Positions 19,133 through 27,391 of a stretch of 27,391 nucleotides of DNA are shown piece after piece. The stretch spans positions 1-27,391 of the forward strand of contig CAYUZM010000001.1 in assembly GCA_964449665.1 (NCBI GenBank), read 5' to 3'. The position numbers and the translations under genes are program-made. This DNA is from an uncultured Solibacteraceae bacterium (GTDB taxonomy: Bacteria; Acidobacteriota; Terriglobia; Bryobacterales; Bryobacteraceae). Position 1 is the stretch's first letter; each line of letters begins with the position of its first letter. Under the pieces are notes generated by a model. It had not been told where the DNA came from, made no database searches, and saw nothing but the letters and a program-made list of their open reading frames with translations.

Positions 19133-21096
19133 GAGCCGAGACCTTTGGTGAGAAATGCCTTGAATTCCTGTGTGTCTTTGGTCAGCCCAACATGGCTGGC
19201 GCGCACGGCCTCGGTGCCGTCAAGCACGACATAGTGCGGAATGGCGACGGTTTGAAAGCGGCCTTCCTGGAGGTTGCGGTTTACCTCGCTGGCGGCGTCG
19301 GTGCCGTCGGTATAAAGTTCCACGAGAACGAAGCCGCCAAGGGCCTCGGCAATCTCGGGCTTGGTGAACATGTTGGCCTTCATCCATTTGCAGTTCGTGC
19401 AGGCGTAGCCGGTGAAGTTTACAAAAAGCGGCTTGTTCTCCGCTTTGGCGCGGGCCAGCGCGCCCTGATAGTCGTCCTTGATCCACTCCAGTTTCGAGCC
19501 GCCGCCGGAGGAAGCAAAGGGCGACGACTTCGGCGACGGGATGTAGGCGTCCAGTTCCCCAAGCGGCGCGCCGAACATGCCCGGCAGCAGACTCACGCTC
19601 ACGATCAGAAACGCCGCGCCCACCAGCGCGCGCGCCACGCCCACCGTCTCGTCGCTCTTGATGCCTTCCATGCGCAGGAACCCGAGCAGATAGAGGCCGG
19701 GCAAAGCGAGAAGCACGATCCACGCGGCGAGGAAGCGCTCGCGCGAAAGCAGGTCCCAGTGCATCACGACGTCGACACTGGAGAAGTACTTCACGGCGGC
19801 GGCGAGCACCAGGAAGCCCATCACGACTTTTACGCGCATCAGCCACCCGCCGGAACGCGGCAGCCGTTTCAGATATCCGGGGAACAGCGCAAGGAAGAAG
19901 AAAGGCGTGGCGAGTCCGGTGGCGAAGCTCAACATGCCGAGCGCGGGTTGCAGCTTGTCACCCTGTACCGAGGCGGCGAGCAGTGTACCCATGAACGGAC
20001 CTACGCAGGCGAACGAGGTGAGCGCGAACGTGAGGCCCATCAGCAGCATCGGCAGCAGGCCCGATCCTTGCGAGGCGTTGTTCATCCGGTTCACCAGCCC
20101 CGACGGCAGCGTGATCTCAAACGCGCCCAGCAGGCTCAGTCCGAAGGCGACGAAGACGAGCGCGATGAAACTGTTCACCCAGGGATTCGAGCCGATCTGC
20201 ACAACGCCAAACGGGCCAAGTAGCGCTGTCGCGCCCAGGCCCAACGCCGTGAAGATCAGAATGATGCCGAGGCAGAAGGTGAGCGCTTTCGGTACGGGAC
20301 TCCCGGCGGGCGCGGACGCTTGGCCAGGAGCGGTCAGCGTGGCGCTGCCGCCGAGAAAGGCCGAGACCGTGAATGGAATCATCGGGAAGACGCACGGCGT
20401 GAAAATCGAAGCCAACCCGAAGCCAAAGGCGACCGCCAGGAACGCGAGCAGACTCTCCTTGGGCGCTGGCGCTGCGGCGGGCGCGGCATCCGGGTTGGCC
20501 GGAGCCGTGGCCGCGCTGCCGCCGCCCGCTGGAAGCGCCGTATATCCAGCCGGAATCGCGCGCGCCACCGCGCCTGCGCCCGGCGCCTTTGTGTTGAGCG
20601 AAACCGTCGCGCTCCTGCGCACGGGCCGCAGGCAGATCTTATCCGAACACACCTGGTAGCGCGACGACGCGGCAAGTTCCAAAACCTCGGGCACGCTCGC
20701 GCCCAGCTTCGCTTCGATCAGGAACACGACTTCGTGCTCAAAGCTCTGCGCCTCGTTATTGAAGTTCGGGTCGAATTTCTTCGCGGGCGCCGGCTGATAG
20801 ACCTGGAACGAGGCGACCGCCGGATTCTCGTCGAGCTTCAATTCTGTTGGGATCGGGCCGGGTGGTGTGGTGGGCGAGTAAAGGTGCCAGCCTTCATCGA
20901 TGGTGGCTTTGAATTGCAGAATCACCGTTCCATGGGCGGCAATCGGCTGGGATTCGGCGGTGAGCTCCCAGGCAACAGGATGCTTGGTGGGGGACTGGGC
21001 GAAAGTAGTAACGGCGAAAAAAAAGAGTAAGCTAGTCCGCCGAAGCAGCGGTTCCAGAGTTGGTCCAGCGGTGCAGTTCGTCCTCGATCTTTTCAT
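19129..21096 (-). CDS. dsbD: DsbD-family thiol:disulfide interchange protein (N-terminal Ig-like domain, TM domain, C-terminal thioredoxin); true start probably 20-60 nt downstream of 21096
   Basis: 'GWHLYS...[10 protein letters not shown]', TM '[10 protein letters not shown]' and 'FACVGPF', thioredoxin '[12 protein letters not shown]'. The ORF-track start overlaps the plsX 3' end. Confidence 0.88.
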
Positions 21097-22060
21097 TTAG
21101 CTTCTCCCGCGCGTACTCGGCGGCGACGCGGATGGCGTTCTTCATGGCGTTGACATTCGAAGAGCCATGACAAATGATACAGACGCCTTTAACACCCAGA
21201 AGGGGAGCACCACCGTACTCAGAATAGTCGATCCGTCGTTTGAACTTCCGGAATCCGCCTCTCGCCAAAAAAGCGCCGATTCTCCCCAACGCGGTCGAGG
21301 TGAGCGATTCGCGCAACGTATGCGTGACGAGGTCGGCAACGCCTTCGCTGATCTTTAGGGCGACATTGCCCGTGAATCCGTCACAGACAACCACATCCAC
21401 GCTTCCTTTATACAAATCGCGGCCTTCCACATTCCCGATAAAATTGATCGGGAGCGTTTTCAGCAGCGGCGTGGCCGCTTTGGTGAGTTCGTTGCCCTTG
21501 TGCTCCTCTTCGCCGATCGAGAGCAGACCCACGCGCGGATTCTCCAGGTGGAGAATGTTGCGTGCGTACACTTCGCCCATCACGGCGAACTGGGCCAGCA
21601 TGCGGGGCGTGCAGTCAACATTGGCGCCGACGTCGAGCAGCACGGCCGGGTTGCCGTTGCGCGTCGGAAGCGTTGTCGCCAGCGATGGGCGCTCCACGCC
21701 ATGCACAATGCCCTGCACCATCTTCGCCGTCGCCATGACCGCGCCGGTATTTCCCGCCGAAACGACGCCATCGGCGACACCGTCGCGAACCAGCCGGCTG
21801 GCGACACGAATCGAGGAGTCTTTCTTCGATCGCACGGCCTTGGCGGCCGAGTCGTCCATGGTGATCACCTCGGACGCATGGACGATCTCGATGGGAAGCT
21901 GCTTCCAGCCCGGATGCTTGTCCAGTTCCGGACGCACCACCTCCTCACGGCCCACCAGGAGAATCTTGACGCCATAGGCGTAAGACGCCGCAAGAGCCCC
22001 TTCGACTTCGATGTGCGGGGCGTTATCCCCACCCATGGCGTCGACGGCGATGGTGACCAT
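21032..22060 (-). CDS. plsX: Phosphate acyltransferase PlsX
   Basis: '[12 protein letters not shown]', 'VSAGNTGA', 'LLDVGANVD', '[11 protein letters not shown]', '[14 protein letters not shown]', 'GAPLLG', 'HGSS'. Confidence 0.96.
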
Positions 22061-22078
22061 GTGAGAGGCCGTGGCGGT

Positions 22079-22258
22079 CTACTCCTGGACTTCGATGACT
22101 TCGCGGGTCTTGTACTTGCCGCAGTGCGGGCAAGCGCGGTGCGGCACCATCGCCTGGTGGCACTCGGGGCACTCGGCAATGGCGGGCTTCTTCAGAAAAT
22201 CATGGGCGCGGCGGGTCGAGGTGCGGCGCTTGGAGTGGCGTCGTTTTGGATTCGGCAT
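22079..22258 (-). CDS. rpmF: 50S ribosomal protein L32
   Basis: Missing from the ORF track; translated by hand: MPNPKRRHSKRRTSTRRAHDFLKKPAIAECPECHQAMVPHRACPHCGKYKTREVIEVQE* (59 aa, two CxxC). Confidence 0.96.
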   Translation of the reverse strand: MPNPKRRHSKRRTSTRRAHDFLKKPAIAECPECHQAMVPHRACPHCGKYKTREVIEVQE

Positions 22259-22280
22259 GATGCTACCTGACTAATTCCTT

Positions 22281-22817
22281 TTATTTGTGGGCGCGGTTGG
22301 GATGGTAGTCCCGAAGCGCGGCCCAACGTTCTTCGGTGCGCGGCTGGCTGCAATGGCATTGCTGCTCATTACGGTTGATACCGCACTCCGGACAGATTCC
22401 CTGGCACGACTCGCGGCAGAGCCGCTGCATGGGGAGCAGCAGCAAAATCTGTTCACGAACCGCGTCGGCGAGCTCAAGCCCGCCATGATCGTAAAACGCA
22501 ACGTCGACGTCGTCGGCCGTGAGGCTGACTTCCGCCTTCTCCGGAGCGTGCTCCGGAGGCTCGTAGACAAGGTCGAACTGCGTGCTGACCGGAACGGTGA
22601 ATCGCTCCAGGCAACGGTCGCAGGCGCATTCGACTTCGCCCGACAACTGGCCCCGGAGGCGGATCTGAGCCGTCGAGGGGCGATATTCAGCCTCACCCGA
22701 GACATGCACCGGCTTGGGCTGCAGCAGCTCGCCCGGCCGGAGATCGAACGTCCCCGGCGCCAAATGGAGGTCGAACTGGATTTTGCCAAGCTCTAACTCC
22801 TTTACACTGAGGAACAT
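22281..22817 (-). CDS. yceD: DUF177/YceD family metal-binding protein
   Basis: 'ECACDRCLE', 'LADAVREQILLLLPMQRLCRESCQGICPECG', 'RWAAL'; canonical position upstream of rpmF-plsX. Start placed at ATG 22817. Confidence 0.9.
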   Translation of the reverse strand: MFLSVKELELGKIQFDLHLAPGTFDLRPGELLQPKPVHVSGEAEYRPSTAQIRLRGQLSGEVECACDRCLERFTVPVSTQFDLVYEPPEHAPEKAEVSLTADDVDVAFYDHGGLELADAVREQILLLLPMQRLCRESCQGICPECGINRNEQQCHCSQPRTEERWAALRDYHPNRAHK

Positions 22818-22880
22818 GCCGACTCCTAGCGGGGGCGCGCGCAGACACACGTCGGCGGCCGCCTATGGCAACAAATAGTC

Positions 22881-22909
22881 ATTATAGCGGATGGCGGGGG
22901 GGAAGGGAA
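22881..22909 (-). promoter_or_regulatory. Possible sigma-70 promoter for yceD-rpmF-plsX
   Basis: Perfect TATAAT on the minus strand (22886-22881) about 64 nt before the yceD start; only a weak -35 (TTCCCT) at 17 bp. Confidence 0.4.
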
Positions 22910-23015
22910 TTCGAAGGGTAGCGAAGAGTCGGCGTGACCCCAGCACGAGGGAAATTGGAGGCGATGAGATTGCGTTTCCGGCGCGGTGGGGGAGAGCCGT
23001 TGAGCCAATCATTCG

Positions 23016-24284
23016 TCAAGCTTGCTTAGGCCATTCAAAATGGTCGTCTCTATTAATCTGCGATTGCGCCTGGATGCCGATCAAGCGCCATGCCCCAGCT
23101 TCGTCTGACTTCCTCCTGGCGTCGCCGTAGATCGAAAGATAGCGTCTCAGTTCCGCGGCGATTTGTGAGTCGAGGTGCTCGAAACACTTCCCGTCGTTGC
23201 AGAATTTGTAATGCTTGCCCCAGCCCTGCATGATTCCATCCACACGCTTTAGTGTTTGGATCAGCGCGTTTTTCTTATCGACTTGTCCGCTGCGGTGGTG
23301 CGATCGAATCGCCATCTCGCTCTGCCTCAGCGTCGTCTTTATGCGAGCTAGCAGACGCCCCTGGGCCTGCCTGCTTGGACGGAGTAGCCCGCTAGCGAGT
23401 TCAATTCCAAGAAACTCGAACTTTTCAAATGTACTCCCTCTTTTTGTCTTCTCGTCAGAAACTGTCATCCCCAACTCACTGAGCATTCGCTTTGCTTTGG
23501 CAAAAGTATTCTCAGCAACTTCTTTGCTGGGGCCGAGAATGATGAAATCGTCGATGTATCGGATACAGCGAACATCAGAGCATTTATTGAGTTCTTGATC
23601 GAACTCATAGAGTGCCAAGTTGCCGATCAGGGGAGAGAGAGCGTTTCCCTGCGCGACACCAATATCCTCCAATGGGAACTTAGCCGCATCCTTTTTCAAT
23701 GCCGCCATATTGTGGAGCTCTACTGCAATTGCCTTCTCGAAAAGCGAACAGAATTCATCCTCGTTCGGCACGCTATCTACGACGACCTTAATGGCCGCCG
23801 ATTTCTTGAGACGCGTAAAGAACTCGGAGATGTCGGAACGGATTGCAAATTTTCCACCGTTGCCGATTGCATCGAGTACGGCCTTGATCGCCGCAGGTAC
23901 CGCAGTCGTAGCGGATTCACGCTTCTTTACACCGCCGAAACTATGTGGAGTGTCAACATACTTTGCGATAGCCGGGACGTCGACAAGAACATCATGGATC
24001 GCGCGCTGTACGATACGTGATTCGATCTTGGCCACTACGAGCGGGCGAAACCCAACCCTACCGCCTTTCGGGAGCTTTACGCCTCGGGCAGGTGGGAACT
24101 CAAATCGCCCCTTTTGAAGCCGCTCAATTAGCCTGCGGAGATTGGTGGTGAGATTCTTTTCAAACTCTTCAACCTCCTTGCGCGTGTCATCTGACTTTGA
24201 CACCCTCGCATTTCTGGAGATTGCGCGCCACGCGCTCTCAATAACCCTTCGGGATCGAACTTGTCGCGCTAGACTCTTCTTCAT
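23016..24284 (-). CDS. Stand-alone group II intron-like reverse transcriptase (G2L4-like), no endonuclease domain
   Basis: RT0-like N-terminus 'IESAWRAISRN', RT1/2 'GVKLPKGG...FRPLVVAKIESRIVQRAI', RT3 'SDISEFF', RT4 'GVAQGNALSPLIGNL', RT5 'RYIDDF', RT7 'FEFLG', thumb/X-like 'MQGWGKHY'; 422 aa; more AT-rich than the host genes. Confidence 0.9.
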   Translation of the reverse strand: MKKSLARQVRSRRVIESAWRAISRNARVSKSDDTRKEVEEFEKNLTTNLRRLIERLQKGRFEFPPARGVKLPKGGRVGFRPLVVAKIESRIVQRAIHDVLVDVPAIAKYVDTPHSFGGVKKRESATTAVPAAIKAVLDAIGNGGKFAIRSDISEFFTRLKKSAAIKVVVDSVPNEDEFCSLFEKAIAVELHNMAALKKDAAKFPLEDIGVAQGNALSPLIGNLALYEFDQELNKCSDVRCIRYIDDFIILGPSKEVAENTFAKAKRMLSELGMTVSDEKTKRGSTFEKFEFLGIELASGLLRPSRQAQGRLLARIKTTLRQSEMAIRSHHRSGQVDKKNALIQTLKRVDGIMQGWGKHYKFCNDGKCFEHLDSQIAAELRRYLSIYGDARRKSDEAGAWRLIGIQAQSQINRDDHFEWPKQA

Positions 24285-24327
24285 CTGTCCATTGGGTCTG
24301 TTGGTTCGCCTGACCCGTCCGACAGCA

Positions 24328-24455
24328 CACTCCTGAACCCAGCGACGTTACCGTGAGGCCCGGTTCGCTCAATCGAGACTTGCGCCTCGCCGCTGACTTG
24401 GGCCCGAAGCGCCCAGGTTGCCCTGATCGCCGAGACGCCCAATACAAGGGTCAGT
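24328..24455. repeat. 128-bp direct repeat, copy 1 (RT-proximal)
   Basis: cactcctgaaccc...aatacaagggtcagt is identical base for base to 24683..24810; it ends 43 bp before the RT start codon. Confidence 0.97.
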
Positions 24456-24682
24456 GCAACAGTCAGCTTGACGGCGCAAGCCCACTGTCGCCGCACCAAG
24501 CTGGCGCGTTTTTGCCGATAGCATACATCGCTCTAATCCCTCCTACTACTATTGTAGCTTTTTGGGTATGACCTGCAAGCGCTGCCGCCATCTCCCTTCG
24601 CCGCCCGGATTATTAAAGCTGCCAGCCGCCCAACAGTCACCATGAACGGTGCAGGTTGCGACTAGATTCATGCCGGACGCGT

Positions 24683-24810
24683 CACTCCTGAACCCAGCGA
24701 CGTTACCGTGAGGCCCGGTTCGCTCAATCGAGACTTGCGCCTCGCCGCTGACTTGGGCCCGAAGCGCCCAGGTTGCCCTGATCGCCGAGACGCCCAATAC
24801 AAGGGTCAGT
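24683..24810. repeat. 128-bp direct repeat, copy 2 (RT-distal)
   Basis: Identical to 24328..24455; offset 355 bp; 227-bp unique spacer at 24456..24682. Confidence 0.97.
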
Positions 24811-24900
24811 ACCACCAAATATACTACGGTTTGGATCTGAGGCGCAAGATATTGTACCGTCTATGCGGCCTAACAGACAGTGGCGCCTCAAGTGTGATGA

Positions 24901-25149
24901 TCATCGGTTGAAGTCAGGCGGTTCGCGCATCGGTCTTCGAGGGGGGATGTCGAGTTCGAGGCCGCCGAGAGGCTCAATTCGCCTCCTAATTGCTTCCGCG
25001 AGATTTTCGGTGACAGAAGGTTGGGTTGCGACCGCGATCGTCAAAATCTCACGTGCCTCTTCTTCCATCGAACGGCCATGGCGCGAAGCTTGTGCGCGCA
25101 GTCGCTCCTTGGTTCTCTCGTCGAGACGACGGATCGTGATGCTAGCCAT
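24901..25149 (-). CDS. FitA/StbC-like ribbon-helix-helix antitoxin (orphan)
   Basis: 'MASITIRRLDERTKERLRAQASRHGRSMEEEAREIL...LGGLELDIPPR...PPDF', typical of FitA-like antitoxins of PIN toxins. Confidence 0.85.
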   Translation of the reverse strand: MASITIRRLDERTKERLRAQASRHGRSMEEEAREILTIAVATQPSVTENLAEAIRRRIEPLGGLELDIPPRRPMREPPDFNR

Positions 25150-25164
25150 GCCTTCAACCTAGCA

Positions 25165-25185
25165 GATGCAATCAATGATTGCATC
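25165..25185. promoter_or_regulatory. Palindromic operator upstream of the antitoxin gene, likely for RHH autoregulation
   Basis: Perfect 10-bp inverted repeat GATGCAATCA-A-TGATTGCATC 15 bp upstream of the antitoxin start; the half-site resembles the TGCTATCA half-site bound by Neisseria FitA. Confidence 0.7.
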
Positions 25186-25214
25186 GCGCCGCTGCGATAG
25201 CATAAACGCCTGAC

Positions 25215-25565
25215 ATGCTCACCCTTCTCCGCTGGATACTCGGAATCGGCTGCGTCCTCGGCCTGCTCACTTTCGGCCTGATTCTCGTCGTTGGGCAGGG
25301 TTTCGATGTTTACCGAAGCGGGTCGGGCGCAGAAGACCTGTTGCGCACAGCGCTGACCGTCGGCATCCCTGCGCTACTCGTAGCCATGCTGGTAACCGTG
25401 GCCGGCGCCGGAGGACGGGTGCTCCTGCACGCCACCGCCGCCGGCGTCGCGGCGGCACTGGCCGGAGTGGTTTGGTCAGTTATGCGTACCAATCCCGGCG
25501 AAGGCAGTTTCTACGCCTGCTTTTTCCTGCTATGGCTCATCTATTACGGAATGAGCATCCGCTAG
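25215..25565 (+). CDS. Small integral membrane hypothetical protein (about 4 TM helices)
   Basis: 116-aa ORF with four hydrophobic stretches; divergent from the antitoxin gene. Confidence 0.7.
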   Translation: MLTLLRWILGIGCVLGLLTFGLILVVGQGFDVYRSGSGAEDLLRTALTVGIPALLVAMLVTVAGAGGRVLLHATAAGVAAALAGVVWSVMRTNPGEGSFYACFFLLWLIYYGMSIR

Positions 25566-25885
25566 AAATCCAAGAAAGCGTGAGGCAGGGTGAGCCGTTC
25601 GGAGGTACAGCCCACCCGACTCGATGGGCTGCCGGGAGTATGATGACGATTCCGGCAAGCGTATCGAGTTTTGCATCGGCCCCCGTAGGATGGGCGGCGG
25701 CCGAAAAATTGTGCCATGCGCCGGCCGCTCGCCGGGGCACACAACTCCCCTATTCCCCTGCGGCAGTAGTGCCGCGGGGCGCGGAGACATTAGAATAAAG
25801 AACTACGCTGGTTTCTCTTCCGCCCAAATACGCGTGGATGGGTAGAGGAACTGGCTCAATGAGGCTACGAGAAAAGAAAACGGCC

Positions 25886-26461
25886 ATGCAAATACCGGAT
25901 GTGACGATACTTCTGGACAACTGGAGCAAGGGCGATCAGAACGCGCTCGACCAGTTGACGCCGGTGGTGTATGACGAATTGCGGCGCCTGGCCGCCAGCT
26001 ATATGCGGCGCGAGCGGCAGGATCACACTCTGCAAAGTACGGCGCTGGTGAACGAAGCCTATCTGAAGCTGGTCGACCAAAAAAACGTCGTCTGGCAGAA
26101 CCGCGCCCACTTCTTCGGCATCGCCGCGCAAATGATCCGCCGCATCCTGGTGGACCATGCGCGTGCCCACAAGGCCGAAAAGCGCGGCGGCGGCGCGGGC
26201 GTATTGTCGCTCGACGAGGCCATCGGCGTCCCCGAGAAACGCGACATCGAAATCCTTTCGCTGAACGACGCGCTCACGCGCCTCTCCGAGCTTGACCCGC
26301 AACAAGGCCGCATCGTAGAACTTCGCTTCTTCACCGGGTTGTCGATCGAAGAGACCGCCGAGGTGGTTGGCGTCTCGCCCGCCACCGTGAAACGCGAGTG
26401 GGCCGCCGCGCGCGCATGGCTCTTCCGCGAGATTTCGCGCAAACCGGAGGGAGAGGAGTAG
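25886..26461 (+). CDS. ECF sigma factor, TIGR02999-like (kinase-associated)
   Basis: '[55 protein letters not shown]...[14 protein letters not shown]...[29 protein letters not shown]'. Start placed at ATG 25886; the ORF track starts at 25838. Confidence 0.9.
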
Positions 26462-26491
26462 CACGGCCGGGCGCCCCGTGCCACGGCAGCC

Positions 26492-27391
26492 ATGACGCCG
26501 GACCGTTGGCAACGAGTGAAATCGATTCTCGCTGGCGCGCTCGACGTGCCAGCATCGCAGCGCGAAGTGTATCTGCGCGATGCCTGCGGAACCGAACTCA
26601 GCCTGCGCCACGAAGTCGATTCGCTGCTCTCCTCTTATACCGAAGCAGGCACCTTCCTGAATACGCAGGAGATGAAGACGCTTCCGGACCCGCGCGTGGG
26701 CGAGGAAATCGGTCCCTACAAGCTGGAACGATTGCTCGGCCAGGGCGGCATGGGCGCCGTCTATCTGGCTTCGCGCGAAGTCGACGGCTTTCCCATGCGC
26801 GTGGCGTTGAAGCTGATTCGCGTCAGCGTGCTCAATGAGTACGTCCACCGCCGCTTCCGCATGGAGCGCCAGATTCTGGCGCGTTTGTCGCATCCCAACA
26901 TTACGCGCCTGATCGACGGCGGCATCGCGCGCGACGGCGTGCCGTTCCTGGTCACCGAATTCGTCGACGGCATCCCGCTCGACGAGTACGTCAAAACCAA
27001 GAAGCCGGGGCTCGCCGAAAAACTCCGCATCCTGGAAGCAATCGCATCGGCCGTCGCCTTCGCGCATCGCAACCTCATCGTCCACGGCGATCTCAAGCCG
27101 CACAACATCCTGGTGAACGCCGAAGGCCAGCCCAAACTGCTGGACTTCGGTATCGCGCGCCTCATCGATCCGGAATCGTCGAACGCCGGCGAGATGACGC
27201 TAGAAGCGTTGACGCCCGCCTGGGCCAGTCCCGAACAGTTACGTGGTGAACCGTTGTCGCCCTCAAGCGACGCCTATTCGCTCGGCCGCCTGATGTACTT
27301 CCTGCTTACCGGCCAGCAGCCGTTCGATCTCACCGGCCAGGCGCCCCCCCAGATTCTGACGTTGCTCTCCCTCAAAACCCCGCCCCTTCCG
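26492..27391 (+). CDS. Hanks-type Ser/Thr protein kinase, 3'-truncated by the window end
   Basis: Missing from the ORF track because it has no stop. ATG 26492 'MTPDRWQRVKSIL...'; 'LGQGGMGAVY', 'VALK', 'RFRMERQILARLSHPNI', 'HGDLKPHNIL', 'LLDFGIA', 'ASPEQ', 'DAYSLG'; open for 300 codons to the end. Confidence 0.93.
   Translation, partial: MTPDRWQRVKSILAGALDVPASQREVYLRDACGTELSLRHEVDSLLSSYTEAGTFLNTQEMKTLPDPRVGEEIGPYKLERLLGQGGMGAVYLASREVDGFPMRVALKLIRVSVLNEYVHRRFRMERQILARLSHPNITRLIDGGIARDGVPFLVTEFVDGIPLDEYVKTKKPGLAEKLRILEAIASAVAFAHRNLIVHGDLKPHNILVNAEGQPKLLDFGIARLIDPESSNAGEMTLEALTPAWASPEQLRGEPLSPSSDAYSLGRLMYFLLTGQQPFDLTGQAPPQILTLLSLKTPPLP

Follow-up and report, generated by a model that had tools for sequence, protein, structure and literature searches.

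Upstream of a reverse transcriptase (RT) gene in an acidobacterium from a rock metagenome lie two direct repeats (LDRs) that, together with the spacer between them, form one conserved, folded RNA leader module and not two repeats with a variable spacer. The gene is on contig CAYUZM010000001.1 of assembly GCA_964449665.1, and all positions given here are those of the window, the whole 27,391-nt stretch that was analysed. The RT belongs to the G2L4 family, each LDR is a structured RNA of the RT-sense strand with covariation, and the two LDRs evolve in concert. The locus is an acidobacterial example of a published architecture and not a new system. That the leader serves as an RT-linked regulatory or binding RNA, the cognate RNA of the RT, is the reading of its function put forward here, and we give it an even chance.

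A sequence-only reading of the window had described a 422-aa RT in an AT-richer island, preceded by about 615 bp lacking a recognisable gene and containing two identical 128-bp repeats 227 bp apart, all of which is confirmed. The repeats (Table 1) are 133 nt long and 98% identical, with an identical core of 128 nt. They are spaced 355 nt from start to start with 227 nt between the cores (a spacer of 222-227 nt), and the proximal repeat ends 43 nt before the ATG of the RT. No open reading frame (ORF) in the upstream tract, 24285-24900, matches any family. The pair are the sole copies in the 7.2-Mb, 1428-contig genome bin, as judged by BLAST and by the covariance model described below. GC content is 0.50-0.58 over 23001-25000 against ~0.61-0.66 for most of the remaining window. 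The earlier statement that intron and retron RNAs are missing also held, as Rfam searched over 21000-27391 at E<=1 gave no intron, retron or other family; since no intron family appeared, there is no group II intron RNA at the locus. The one weak and unrelated match in this search, to the COG2908 RNA motif (RF02939; 25321-25358, plus strand; 21.7 bits against a gathering score of 58.7, E 0.03), is probably due to chance.

The LDRs as paired structured RNAs

The fold of the LDR was derived from an alignment of 20 proximal copies. It is a three-way junction whose closing stem bears three arms. One is a hairpin that is long and variable, another is the GAGGC-GNRA-GUCUC hairpin, which is almost invariant, and the last is a GCG...CGC stem bearing a GGxCC hairpin. 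In this fold 93% of the alignment cells are paired, compared with 35-47% when the partners are slid. Compensatory double changes occur at 16 of the 33 pairs, and none of 500 shuffles reached the observed values. G-U pairs account for 106 of the 660 paired cells, one pair being G-U in 19 of the 20 loci. Because these G-U pairs would be A-C mismatches on the opposite strand, the fold works on the sense strand only. A covariance model run on both strands of all loci matched solely the RT-sense strand, directly upstream of RTs; it did not match the Pseudomonas-type LDRs, which have diverged past recognition. The proposal of the sequence-only reading that the repeats give rise to an RNA tied to the RT is thereby strengthened, as covariation, G-U pairs and sense-only model matches all identify them as strand-specific structured RNA.

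A scan of relatives that took a single genome for each species gave 44 loci. Two repeats, each of 88-140 nt, are carried by 27 of the 44 fetched loci (those with enough upstream sequence), or 28 when the window is included, and they lie at the same place relative to the RT start, with the proximal copy ending ~40-100 nt before it. Homologous RTs do, then, have the upstream repeats. The repeat period is 336-362 nt in most loci; in Pseudomonas it is 485-492 nt, and a single locus has 267 nt. The copies within a locus are on average 99% identical (minimum 95%), whereas proximal copies from different loci have a median identity of 53%. The distal copy is more closely related to the proximal copy of its own locus than to any other copy in 27 of the 28 loci, and at the 28 sites that differ between L022 and L023 both copies of a locus agree every time. 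As partner copies cluster together and loci with two copies occur throughout the RT tree, the near-identity reflects concerted evolution and not recent duplication. The sequence-only reading had offered either recent duplication or active homogenisation as the source of the identity; the former finds no support and the latter is supported.

The differences that do separate the copies in other loci (TC 7, AT 5, CT 4 etc.) are not specific to adenine. A diversity-generating retroelement (DGR), in which two near-identical ~130-nt repeats (TR and VR) likewise lie beside an RT, was considered and rejected: the copies in the window are identical, there is no adenine bias elsewhere, both copies are in a leader that is not a target, Avd is missing and the RT is of another family.

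One difference between copies is common to L019, L020 and L021, in which a GAAA loop caps the invariant hairpin of LDR1 and a GUAA loop that of LDR2 (alignment column 122). The GUAA loop makes an in-frame TAA in LDR2 only, and LDR1 stays open. The survival of this difference through homogenisation suggests that it is selected. Further direct repeats, unrelated to the LDR model, are found upstream of the leader module in L007 (234 nt at 97%, ~700-1400 nt upstream of the RT) and L026 (150 nt at 93%, ~325-770 nt upstream of the RT).

The conserved spacer and the permuted reading frame

Alignment of the whole leader from 19 loci gave a constant order of elements on the RT strand, namely P1, LDR1, box a, hairpin H1 enclosing box b, a U-rich tract, a G-rich tract and P2, followed by a Shine-Dalgarno sequence (SD), an ATG, CAAAAAC, hairpin H2, LDR2, boxes a' and b' and the RT start codon (Table 1). 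The spacer had been expected to vary between homologues; it is instead conserved, containing a promoter element, a start-codon cassette and helices that pair with the 5' untranslated region (5'UTR) of the RT.

Table 1. Features of the G2L4 locus, in window positions; all are on the minus strand, that of the RT gene
Feature	Position	Strand	Basis
Whole G2L4 cassette: P1, LDR1, spacer, LDR2, RT and 115-nt tail	22901-24895	-	flank alignment
Candidate promoter P1 before LDR1: TTGCGC (24846-24841), 17-nt gap, TATATT (24823-24818)	24818-24857	-	sequence and alignment
Near-palindrome over the P1 -35 element: GTACAATATCTTGCG	24857-24843	-	conserved in related loci
LDR1, distal repeat, three-way-junction RNA	24683-24815	-	repeat search; covariance model R1 (24682-24816, 124.8 bits)
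Open frame through LDR1 and ~45 codons; 89 aa from TTG, no conserved start of its own	24549-24818	-	ORF and alignment
Box a, GTGACGCGTCCGG, directly 3' of LDR1, pairs with a'	24673-24685	-	helix 1
Hairpin H1 (arms 24665-24659 and 24628-24622), box b CTGTTGG (24636-24630), then U-rich AGCUUUAAUAAU	24622-24665	-	helices 2 and 3
Predicted promoter P2 in the spacer: TTGCAG (24578-24573), 16-nt gap, TACAAT (24556-24551)	24551-24578	-	alignment
Start cassette: SD TAGGAGGG (24545-24538), ATG (24528-24526), CAAAAAC (24514-24508), H2 (24508-24503/24497-24492)	24492-24545	-	alignment, helix 4
LDR frame through LDR2, accessible from the ATG only through a -1 shift at CAAAAAC	24281-24514	-	frame analysis
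LDR2, proximal repeat, core identical to that of LDR1	24328-24460	-	repeat search; R1 (24327-24461, 124 bits)
Box a' TCGGACGGGTCAGG (24322-24309) and box b' CCAACAGACC (24304-24295), RT 5'UTR	24295-24322	-	covariation
RT, G2L4 family, 422 aa, YIDD, thumb/X region, no endonuclease tail	23016-24284	-	domain search, PDB match, tree

Boxes a' and b' sit 10-38 nt before the ATG of the RT and are the partners of two long-range helices, both of which covary. Helix 1 (a:a') has 13 pairs, spans ~360 nt in the window, has 93% of its cells paired and shows compensatory changes at seven pairs. The second, b:b', is of 8-11 bp; CCUGUUGG/CCAACAGG becomes CUGCAGG/CCUGCAG in L022, and in-step changes are also found in L010, L011, L016 and L023. 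When a:a', b:b', H1 and H2 are taken together, 92% of cells are paired compared with at most 43% for slid partners, and 18 pairs show compensatory changes compared with 4-7 in the slid controls. Given the order a, b, a', b', these helices would form a pseudoknot in a long transcript or, in trans, would join an RNA comprising LDR1, a and b to an RT mRNA initiated at P2.

The candidate promoter P1 has the family form of a near-palindrome and TTGnnn-17-TATAT before LDR1. The near-palindrome (consensus CACAATATnTTGTG; columns ~101-116 of alignment A3) shows conservation across loci of acidobacteria and Acetobacteraceae and might serve as an operator. Every one of the 19 aligned loci has the TTG, the TA and the last T of the P2 element, and the same element is present in Pseudomonas-type spacers. 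H1 and the U-rich tract that follows it (consensus AGCUUU(A/U)AU(A/U)UU) may form a terminator. The only terminator-like match in a consensus scan of 24200-25250 is on the plus strand (24489-24506), being the reverse complement of H2 and the A-run, a hairpin followed by TTTTTG, and it might stop antisense transcription leaving the RT gene. A conserved G-rich tract just upstream of P2 (~24585-24610, minus strand; A3 columns ~355-385), which in L003 and L011, for example, reads GGGCGGGGAGGGGCCGGGG, has four G-runs and resembles a G-quadruplex on the sense strand; in the window it is weaker.

The start cassette has CAAAAAC five codons after the ATG with the covarying hairpin H2 immediately next, and conservation of this TGCAAAAACGTGCCA plus hairpin motif extends from Acidobacteriota to Pseudomonas. 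Loci of the Pseudomonas type, and others that branch deeply, have the same H1 with AGCUUUAUUUU, complementarities resembling a:a' and b:b', P2, and the SD-ATG-TGCAAAAACGTGCCA-hairpin series. Because these deep-branching loci carry the same elements, the leader module is ancestral to the family. In the Pseudomonas loci L030, L035 and L038 the promoter/SD/ATG/TGCAAAAACGTGCCA/hairpin cassette occurs twice in tandem within the spacer, and this duplication accounts for the 485-nt period of Pseudomonas as against ~350 nt elsewhere.

One sense frame is free of stops through LDR1 and about 45 further codons in all 19 aligned loci, whereas the other two sense frames have 3-7 stops each. In Pseudomonas, Roseomonas and other clades this LDR frame remains open for 100-340 nt past LDR1. 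Tested locus by locus against dinucleotide shuffles, its openness gave P values of 0.03-0.29 in nearly all lineages and 0.45 in L039, and its sequences cannot be aligned between deep clades. The LDR frame is also free of stops between a point just past P2 and the end of LDR2, and in most loci it ends 0-8 nt beyond LDR2. In the window it continues to a TGA that overlaps the ATG of the RT (ATGA), which suggests translational coupling of the LDR frame to the RT. The conserved ATG is itself out of the LDR frame and a -1 shift is required to reach it; CAAAAAC (UAAAAAG in two loci) and H2 resemble a frameshift site. An ATG or GTG in the LDR frame lies directly before CAAAAAC in about 40% of loci, among them all those of Pseudomonas, and L016, L039 and L044 have no A-run and an ATG directly in the LDR frame.

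The predicted N-part of the product, encoded before LDR2, resembles a signal peptide in having a basic stretch followed by a hydrophobic one. On the chromosome there are thus an 'LDR-C-part' and a 'start-N-part-LDR-stop', and the frame would be whole only on a head-to-tail copy of the repeat unit; the predicted products are ~66 aa for the linear form and ~110 aa for the joined one. It is continuous over the full unit in L003 and L011. The repeat-unit period modulo 3 varies, a stop interrupts the unit in 17 of 19 loci, mostly near P2, and past alignment column ~370 the frame used differs between loci. An endless ORF of the DRT2 type was rejected as a conserved feature on account of the varying period and these stops.

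No amino-acid-level selection was detected by Nei-Gojobori pN/pS, which is 0.96 in frame compared with 1.01 and 1.04 out of frame. Across the LDR frame the entropy is much the same at each codon position, and neither measure gave a coding signature. The LDR1 and C-part frame gave no fold with AlphaFold2 (19-sequence alignment; mean pLDDT 54, pTM 0.27), no relatives in a search of 5.8 billion proteins or in Pfam, and only chance-level matches in the ESM Atlas, where recognition was below threshold. We treat the open frame as real and kept open by selection, and any product of it as hypothetical. The comparison as a whole provides a testable RNA anatomy, with matched three-way junctions, pseudoknot-like pairing on the RT start, an internal promoter, a frameshift-like cassette and a permuted frame.

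Possible roles of the leader

To our knowledge, G2L4 is the sole bacterial RT shown to act in chromosomal DNA repair. The sequence-only reading had mentioned ~140-bp repeats upstream of G2L4 genes, and correctly so: ~70% of these genes are preceded, within 1 kb, by a pair of ~140-bp LDRs separated by a ~240-bp spacer, and the cassette lies in horizontally acquired DNA of lower GC content (Park et al. 2022, bioRxiv 10.1101/2022.03.14.484287). In the same study TGIRT-seq depth over the LDRs was ~20-fold higher on the bottom strand, and co-expression of the LDRs modulated survival after H2O2 or phleomycin while the level of RT protein was unchanged (bioRxiv 10.1101/2022.03.14.484287). G2L4 is documented as a DNA-repair polymerase, with the phenotype demonstrated for the Pseudomonas aeruginosa enzyme only. 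Later structural and atomic force microscopy papers on G2L4 make no mention of the repeats, and a full-text literature search returned no further paper on the LDRs.

As a regulatory or binding RNA, the leader would work as follows. As stable RNAs, the junctions of the LDRs would bind the dimeric RT or gate it. A short upstream frame, translated through LDR2, and the long-range helices would together set the amount or activity of the RT, with a:a' and b:b' pairing on the translation-start region of the RT either in cis, as a pseudoknot, or in trans, between an LDR1 RNA and the RT mRNA. The identity of the LDRs would be upheld by frequent conversion between close direct repeats and by selection for two matched copies.

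An arrangement of this kind is familiar from group II introns, where the intron RT LtrA binds intron domain IVa, which covers its own ribosome-binding site, and so autoregulates its synthesis. The G2L4 leader similarly places a structured RNA, some of its hairpins capped by GNRA loops, at or beside the translation start of an RT, and G2L4 RTs descend from intron RTs, of which LtrA is one. It differs from domain IVa in having no intron domains recognised by Rfam and in being duplicated, and binding by the RT is hypothetical.

Several points weigh against a regulatory or binding role. A purely regulatory leader does not explain why the copies are nearly identical, which goes beyond what is needed for both to fold, and it leaves unexplained an open frame extending 100-340 nt past LDR1 in every lineage. 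The five loci with a single LDR show that the two-copy state is not indispensable, and in the published E. coli tests the RT worked without LDRs. The consensus scan of 24200-25250 found no promoter (P2 in the window was below threshold) and flagged neither P1 nor P2 nor any RT-sense terminator; P1, P2 and the RNA ends are predictions from the sequence.

The first two of these points are where a model of retro-copying is strongest. In it the RT would copy the LDR1-spacer-LDR2 RNA and jump between the LDRs, giving a head-to-tail cDNA in which the permuted frame is joined under P2. Although we consider such copying unlikely overall, it best accounts for the permuted open frame and for the need for identical repeats, because a homology-guided jump needs near-identical LDRs. 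In its favour are the opening of the LDR frame through LDR1 and 100-340 nt beyond in all lineages, Pseudomonas included, its stop 0-8 nt after LDR2 in most loci, the placing of the SD/ATG cassette and the basic-then-hydrophobic N-part just before LDR2, the continuity of the frame over the whole unit in L003 and L011, and the stop codon of L019, L020 and L021, which falls in LDR2 only and leaves LDR1 open. In a fuller version, which is likewise improbable, the LDRs would act like retroviral R repeats, and the cDNA or a ~355-bp one-LDR circle would make the split gene whole, allow its expression from P2 and homogenise the repeats. Set against retro-copying are the in-frame pN/pS of 0.96 (~1.0 out of frame) with its flat codon-position entropy, the low AlphaFold2 confidence and the lack of relatives in Pfam, the Atlas or the protein database, the change of frame between loci after column ~370, and a period that is no fixed multiple of 3 with a stop near P2 in most loci, so that there is no endless ORF. 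Moreover, the depth of the LDR unit is not raised in metagenome contigs, whose depth is low overall, and the documented activity of G2L4 is that of a DNA-repair polymerase.

A parallel for retro-copying is DRT2 (UG2), in which an RT lies beside a structured RNA and a frame becomes complete only when a repeat-bounded unit is copied head to tail, the 'neo' gene being made by rolling-circle reverse transcription. The DRT2 unit is ~120 nt long compared with ~350 nt for the G2L4 module, and its RT is of another family, the window RT matching the Drt2 model at E 5e-11 against 7.5e-39 for the generic RT model. The G2L4 module further differs in having a finite frame, with a stop in most loci and no amino-acid-level selection, and its head-to-tail cDNA is hypothetical. 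If it is true that reverse transcription rebuilds the permuted frame, G2L4 would join DRT2 as a gene-writing RT.

The repeats could instead be a DNA switch in which the RT takes no part. RecA-type recombination between the LDRs would make the locus alternate between states with two repeats, with one repeat (plus a 355-bp circle) and with three repeats, and would either change the promoter and leader that drive the RT or transiently rebuild the permuted frame. Concerted evolution is to be expected for repeats 355 nt apart. Five loci with a single LDR have the order P1-LDR-a'b'-RT, without boxes a and b, which is the exact product of recombination between two copies. The four of these that could be placed in the tree (the RT of L041 is too short) are scattered, and three are sisters of two-LDR loci. 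Among the rock-metagenome runs that contain the window, Logan contigs from two (X1, X3) join 24327 to 24683, skipping exactly 355 nt and giving a one-repeat form. This join could be a real one-LDR deletion variant or subpopulation or could result from collapse of the de Bruijn graph. Three-copy arrays are not found among the 44 loci, and a DNA switch leaves the covarying structures, a sign of selection at the RNA level, unexplained; we regard it as quite improbable.

A role for the repeats as attachment sites for an integrase, with no function as RNA, would fit the mobility of the cassette, which has replaced vapC (see below), and the integrases reported near G2L4 in Pseudomonas (Park et al., bioRxiv 10.1101/2022.03.14.484287). 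The chance of this is slight, as the two repeats lie together on the same side of the RT instead of bracketing the cassette, whose ends lie outside them, there is no integrase in the window, and the covariation with G-U pairs and the strand specificity point to RNA. An assembly artefact, or a chance recent duplication private to the bin, could be suspected from the fragmentation of the bin (1428 contigs) and from the one-copy form seen in two Logan runs. It can be dismissed with near certainty, given that 27 other independent assemblies, including isolate genomes, have the same architecture and spacing, and that contigs from two further independent Logan runs (X2, X4) link the unique spacer to the repeat on either side. 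The artefact that the sequence-only reading had named as a danger to its own case is thus countered, and the preferred reading of the leader remains that of a regulatory or binding RNA.

Family of the reverse transcriptase and origin of the cassette

The domain matches of the window RT are RVT_1 (E 6e-23) and, weakly, group II maturase (GIIM), with no others and no endonuclease domain, and its sequence contains the motif RYIDDF. The hallmark of G2L4 is YIDD in place of YADD (Toro & Nisa-Martinez 2014, PMC4244168). Among all PDB chains the best matches are the G2L4 RT structures 9d5x/9d4s, of the P. aeruginosa enzyme, at E 6e-62 over residues 5-403, the next best being a group II intron RT at E 2e-16. 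I244, D245 and D246 are invariant in 16 RT relatives, and Y/F-[ILVM]-DD is found in 41 of 41 family RTs, the outgroup L045 having YADD. A maximum-likelihood tree, in which other RT classes are not represented by named references, places the clade of Pseudomonas G2L4 inside the acidobacterial and alphaproteobacterial RTs, and long branches set off two outgroup RTs. The likeness to G2L4 enzymes to which the sequence-only reading had pointed is thus supported by structure matches and by the tree.

The window RT is 56-62% identical to RTs of Acidobacteriaceae/Terriglobia bins, Acidiphilium, Falsiroseomonas and Methylosinus, and 33-35% identical to Pseudomonas G2L4. Known G2L4 traits include an RT3a insertion, in which a basic pair and an acidic partner plug the active site, and a Ser-rich RT0 loop (PMC11761039). 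In a pairwise alignment, KK (197-198) of the window lies opposite R190/R191, E189 falls in the region of D182, and the RT0 loop reads VSKSD where G2L4 has LSSSD; at the level of sequence these RT3a and RT0 substitutions look conservative.

Other classes of RT fit poorly. With PADLOC the generic RT model (7.5e-39) scored above the best specific one, RT_UG17 (7.5e-34). A retron was rejected: the retron RT model NF038233 gave 43 bits (E 3e-11) against a cutoff of 235, and there is no Rfam retron RNA. The covarying long-range helix a:a', enclosing structured RNA upstream of an RT, does recall the a1/a2 inverted repeats of a retron msr-msd, but the G2L4 leader has no msr/msd features, is a much larger RNA, has a promoter and a predicted translated frame, and contains two identical junctions. 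A mobile group II intron was also rejected, as Rfam gave no match for ribozyme domains and the NCBIfam intron RT/maturase model TIGR04416 gave 163 bits, under its cutoff of 300.

The G2L4 of P. aeruginosa AZPAE12409 is the closest characterized counterpart of the window. It has YIDD and aligns over its full length (E 6e-62), and it is a free-standing gene in a lower-GC island with two ~130-140-nt repeats and a ~230-nt spacer directly upstream. Loci of related species within the genus Pseudomonas share P2, the SD-ATG-TGCAAAAACGTGCCA hairpin and H1 with AGCUUUAUUUU with the window. The Pseudomonas loci differ in an LDR that cannot be aligned to that of the window and is not matched by the covariance model, in a ~350-nt spacer with the promoter/ATG cassette duplicated, in an RT of only 33-35% amino-acid identity and in a host that is not acidobacterial. 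The window locus thus extends the LDR architecture to Acidobacteriota.

The locus is a horizontally acquired G2L4 cassette. Its flanks, 22002-22900 and 24896-25669, align to three genomes of the same genus in which fitA, vapC (fitB) and yceD are adjacent, and in the window the ~2-kb cassette replaces the vapC/fitB toxin gene. There is no conserved motif downstream of the RT stop to mark the 3' end of the cassette. A search for a remnant of the PIN domain found none, either downstream of the RT gene or in the stub of 26 codons that follows fitA. An intact, orphan FitA-like ribbon-helix-helix antitoxin remains at 24901-25149 on the minus strand (PF22513, E 1e-17). Of vapC only the first three codons are left, ATGATCATC, in the stub at 24824-24904 (minus strand). 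Elsewhere in the family two RTs appear to be broken, that of L043 by a stop 123 codons after the start of the match and that of L041, which has only 218 aa in frame, and in both loci the leader is still recognisable.

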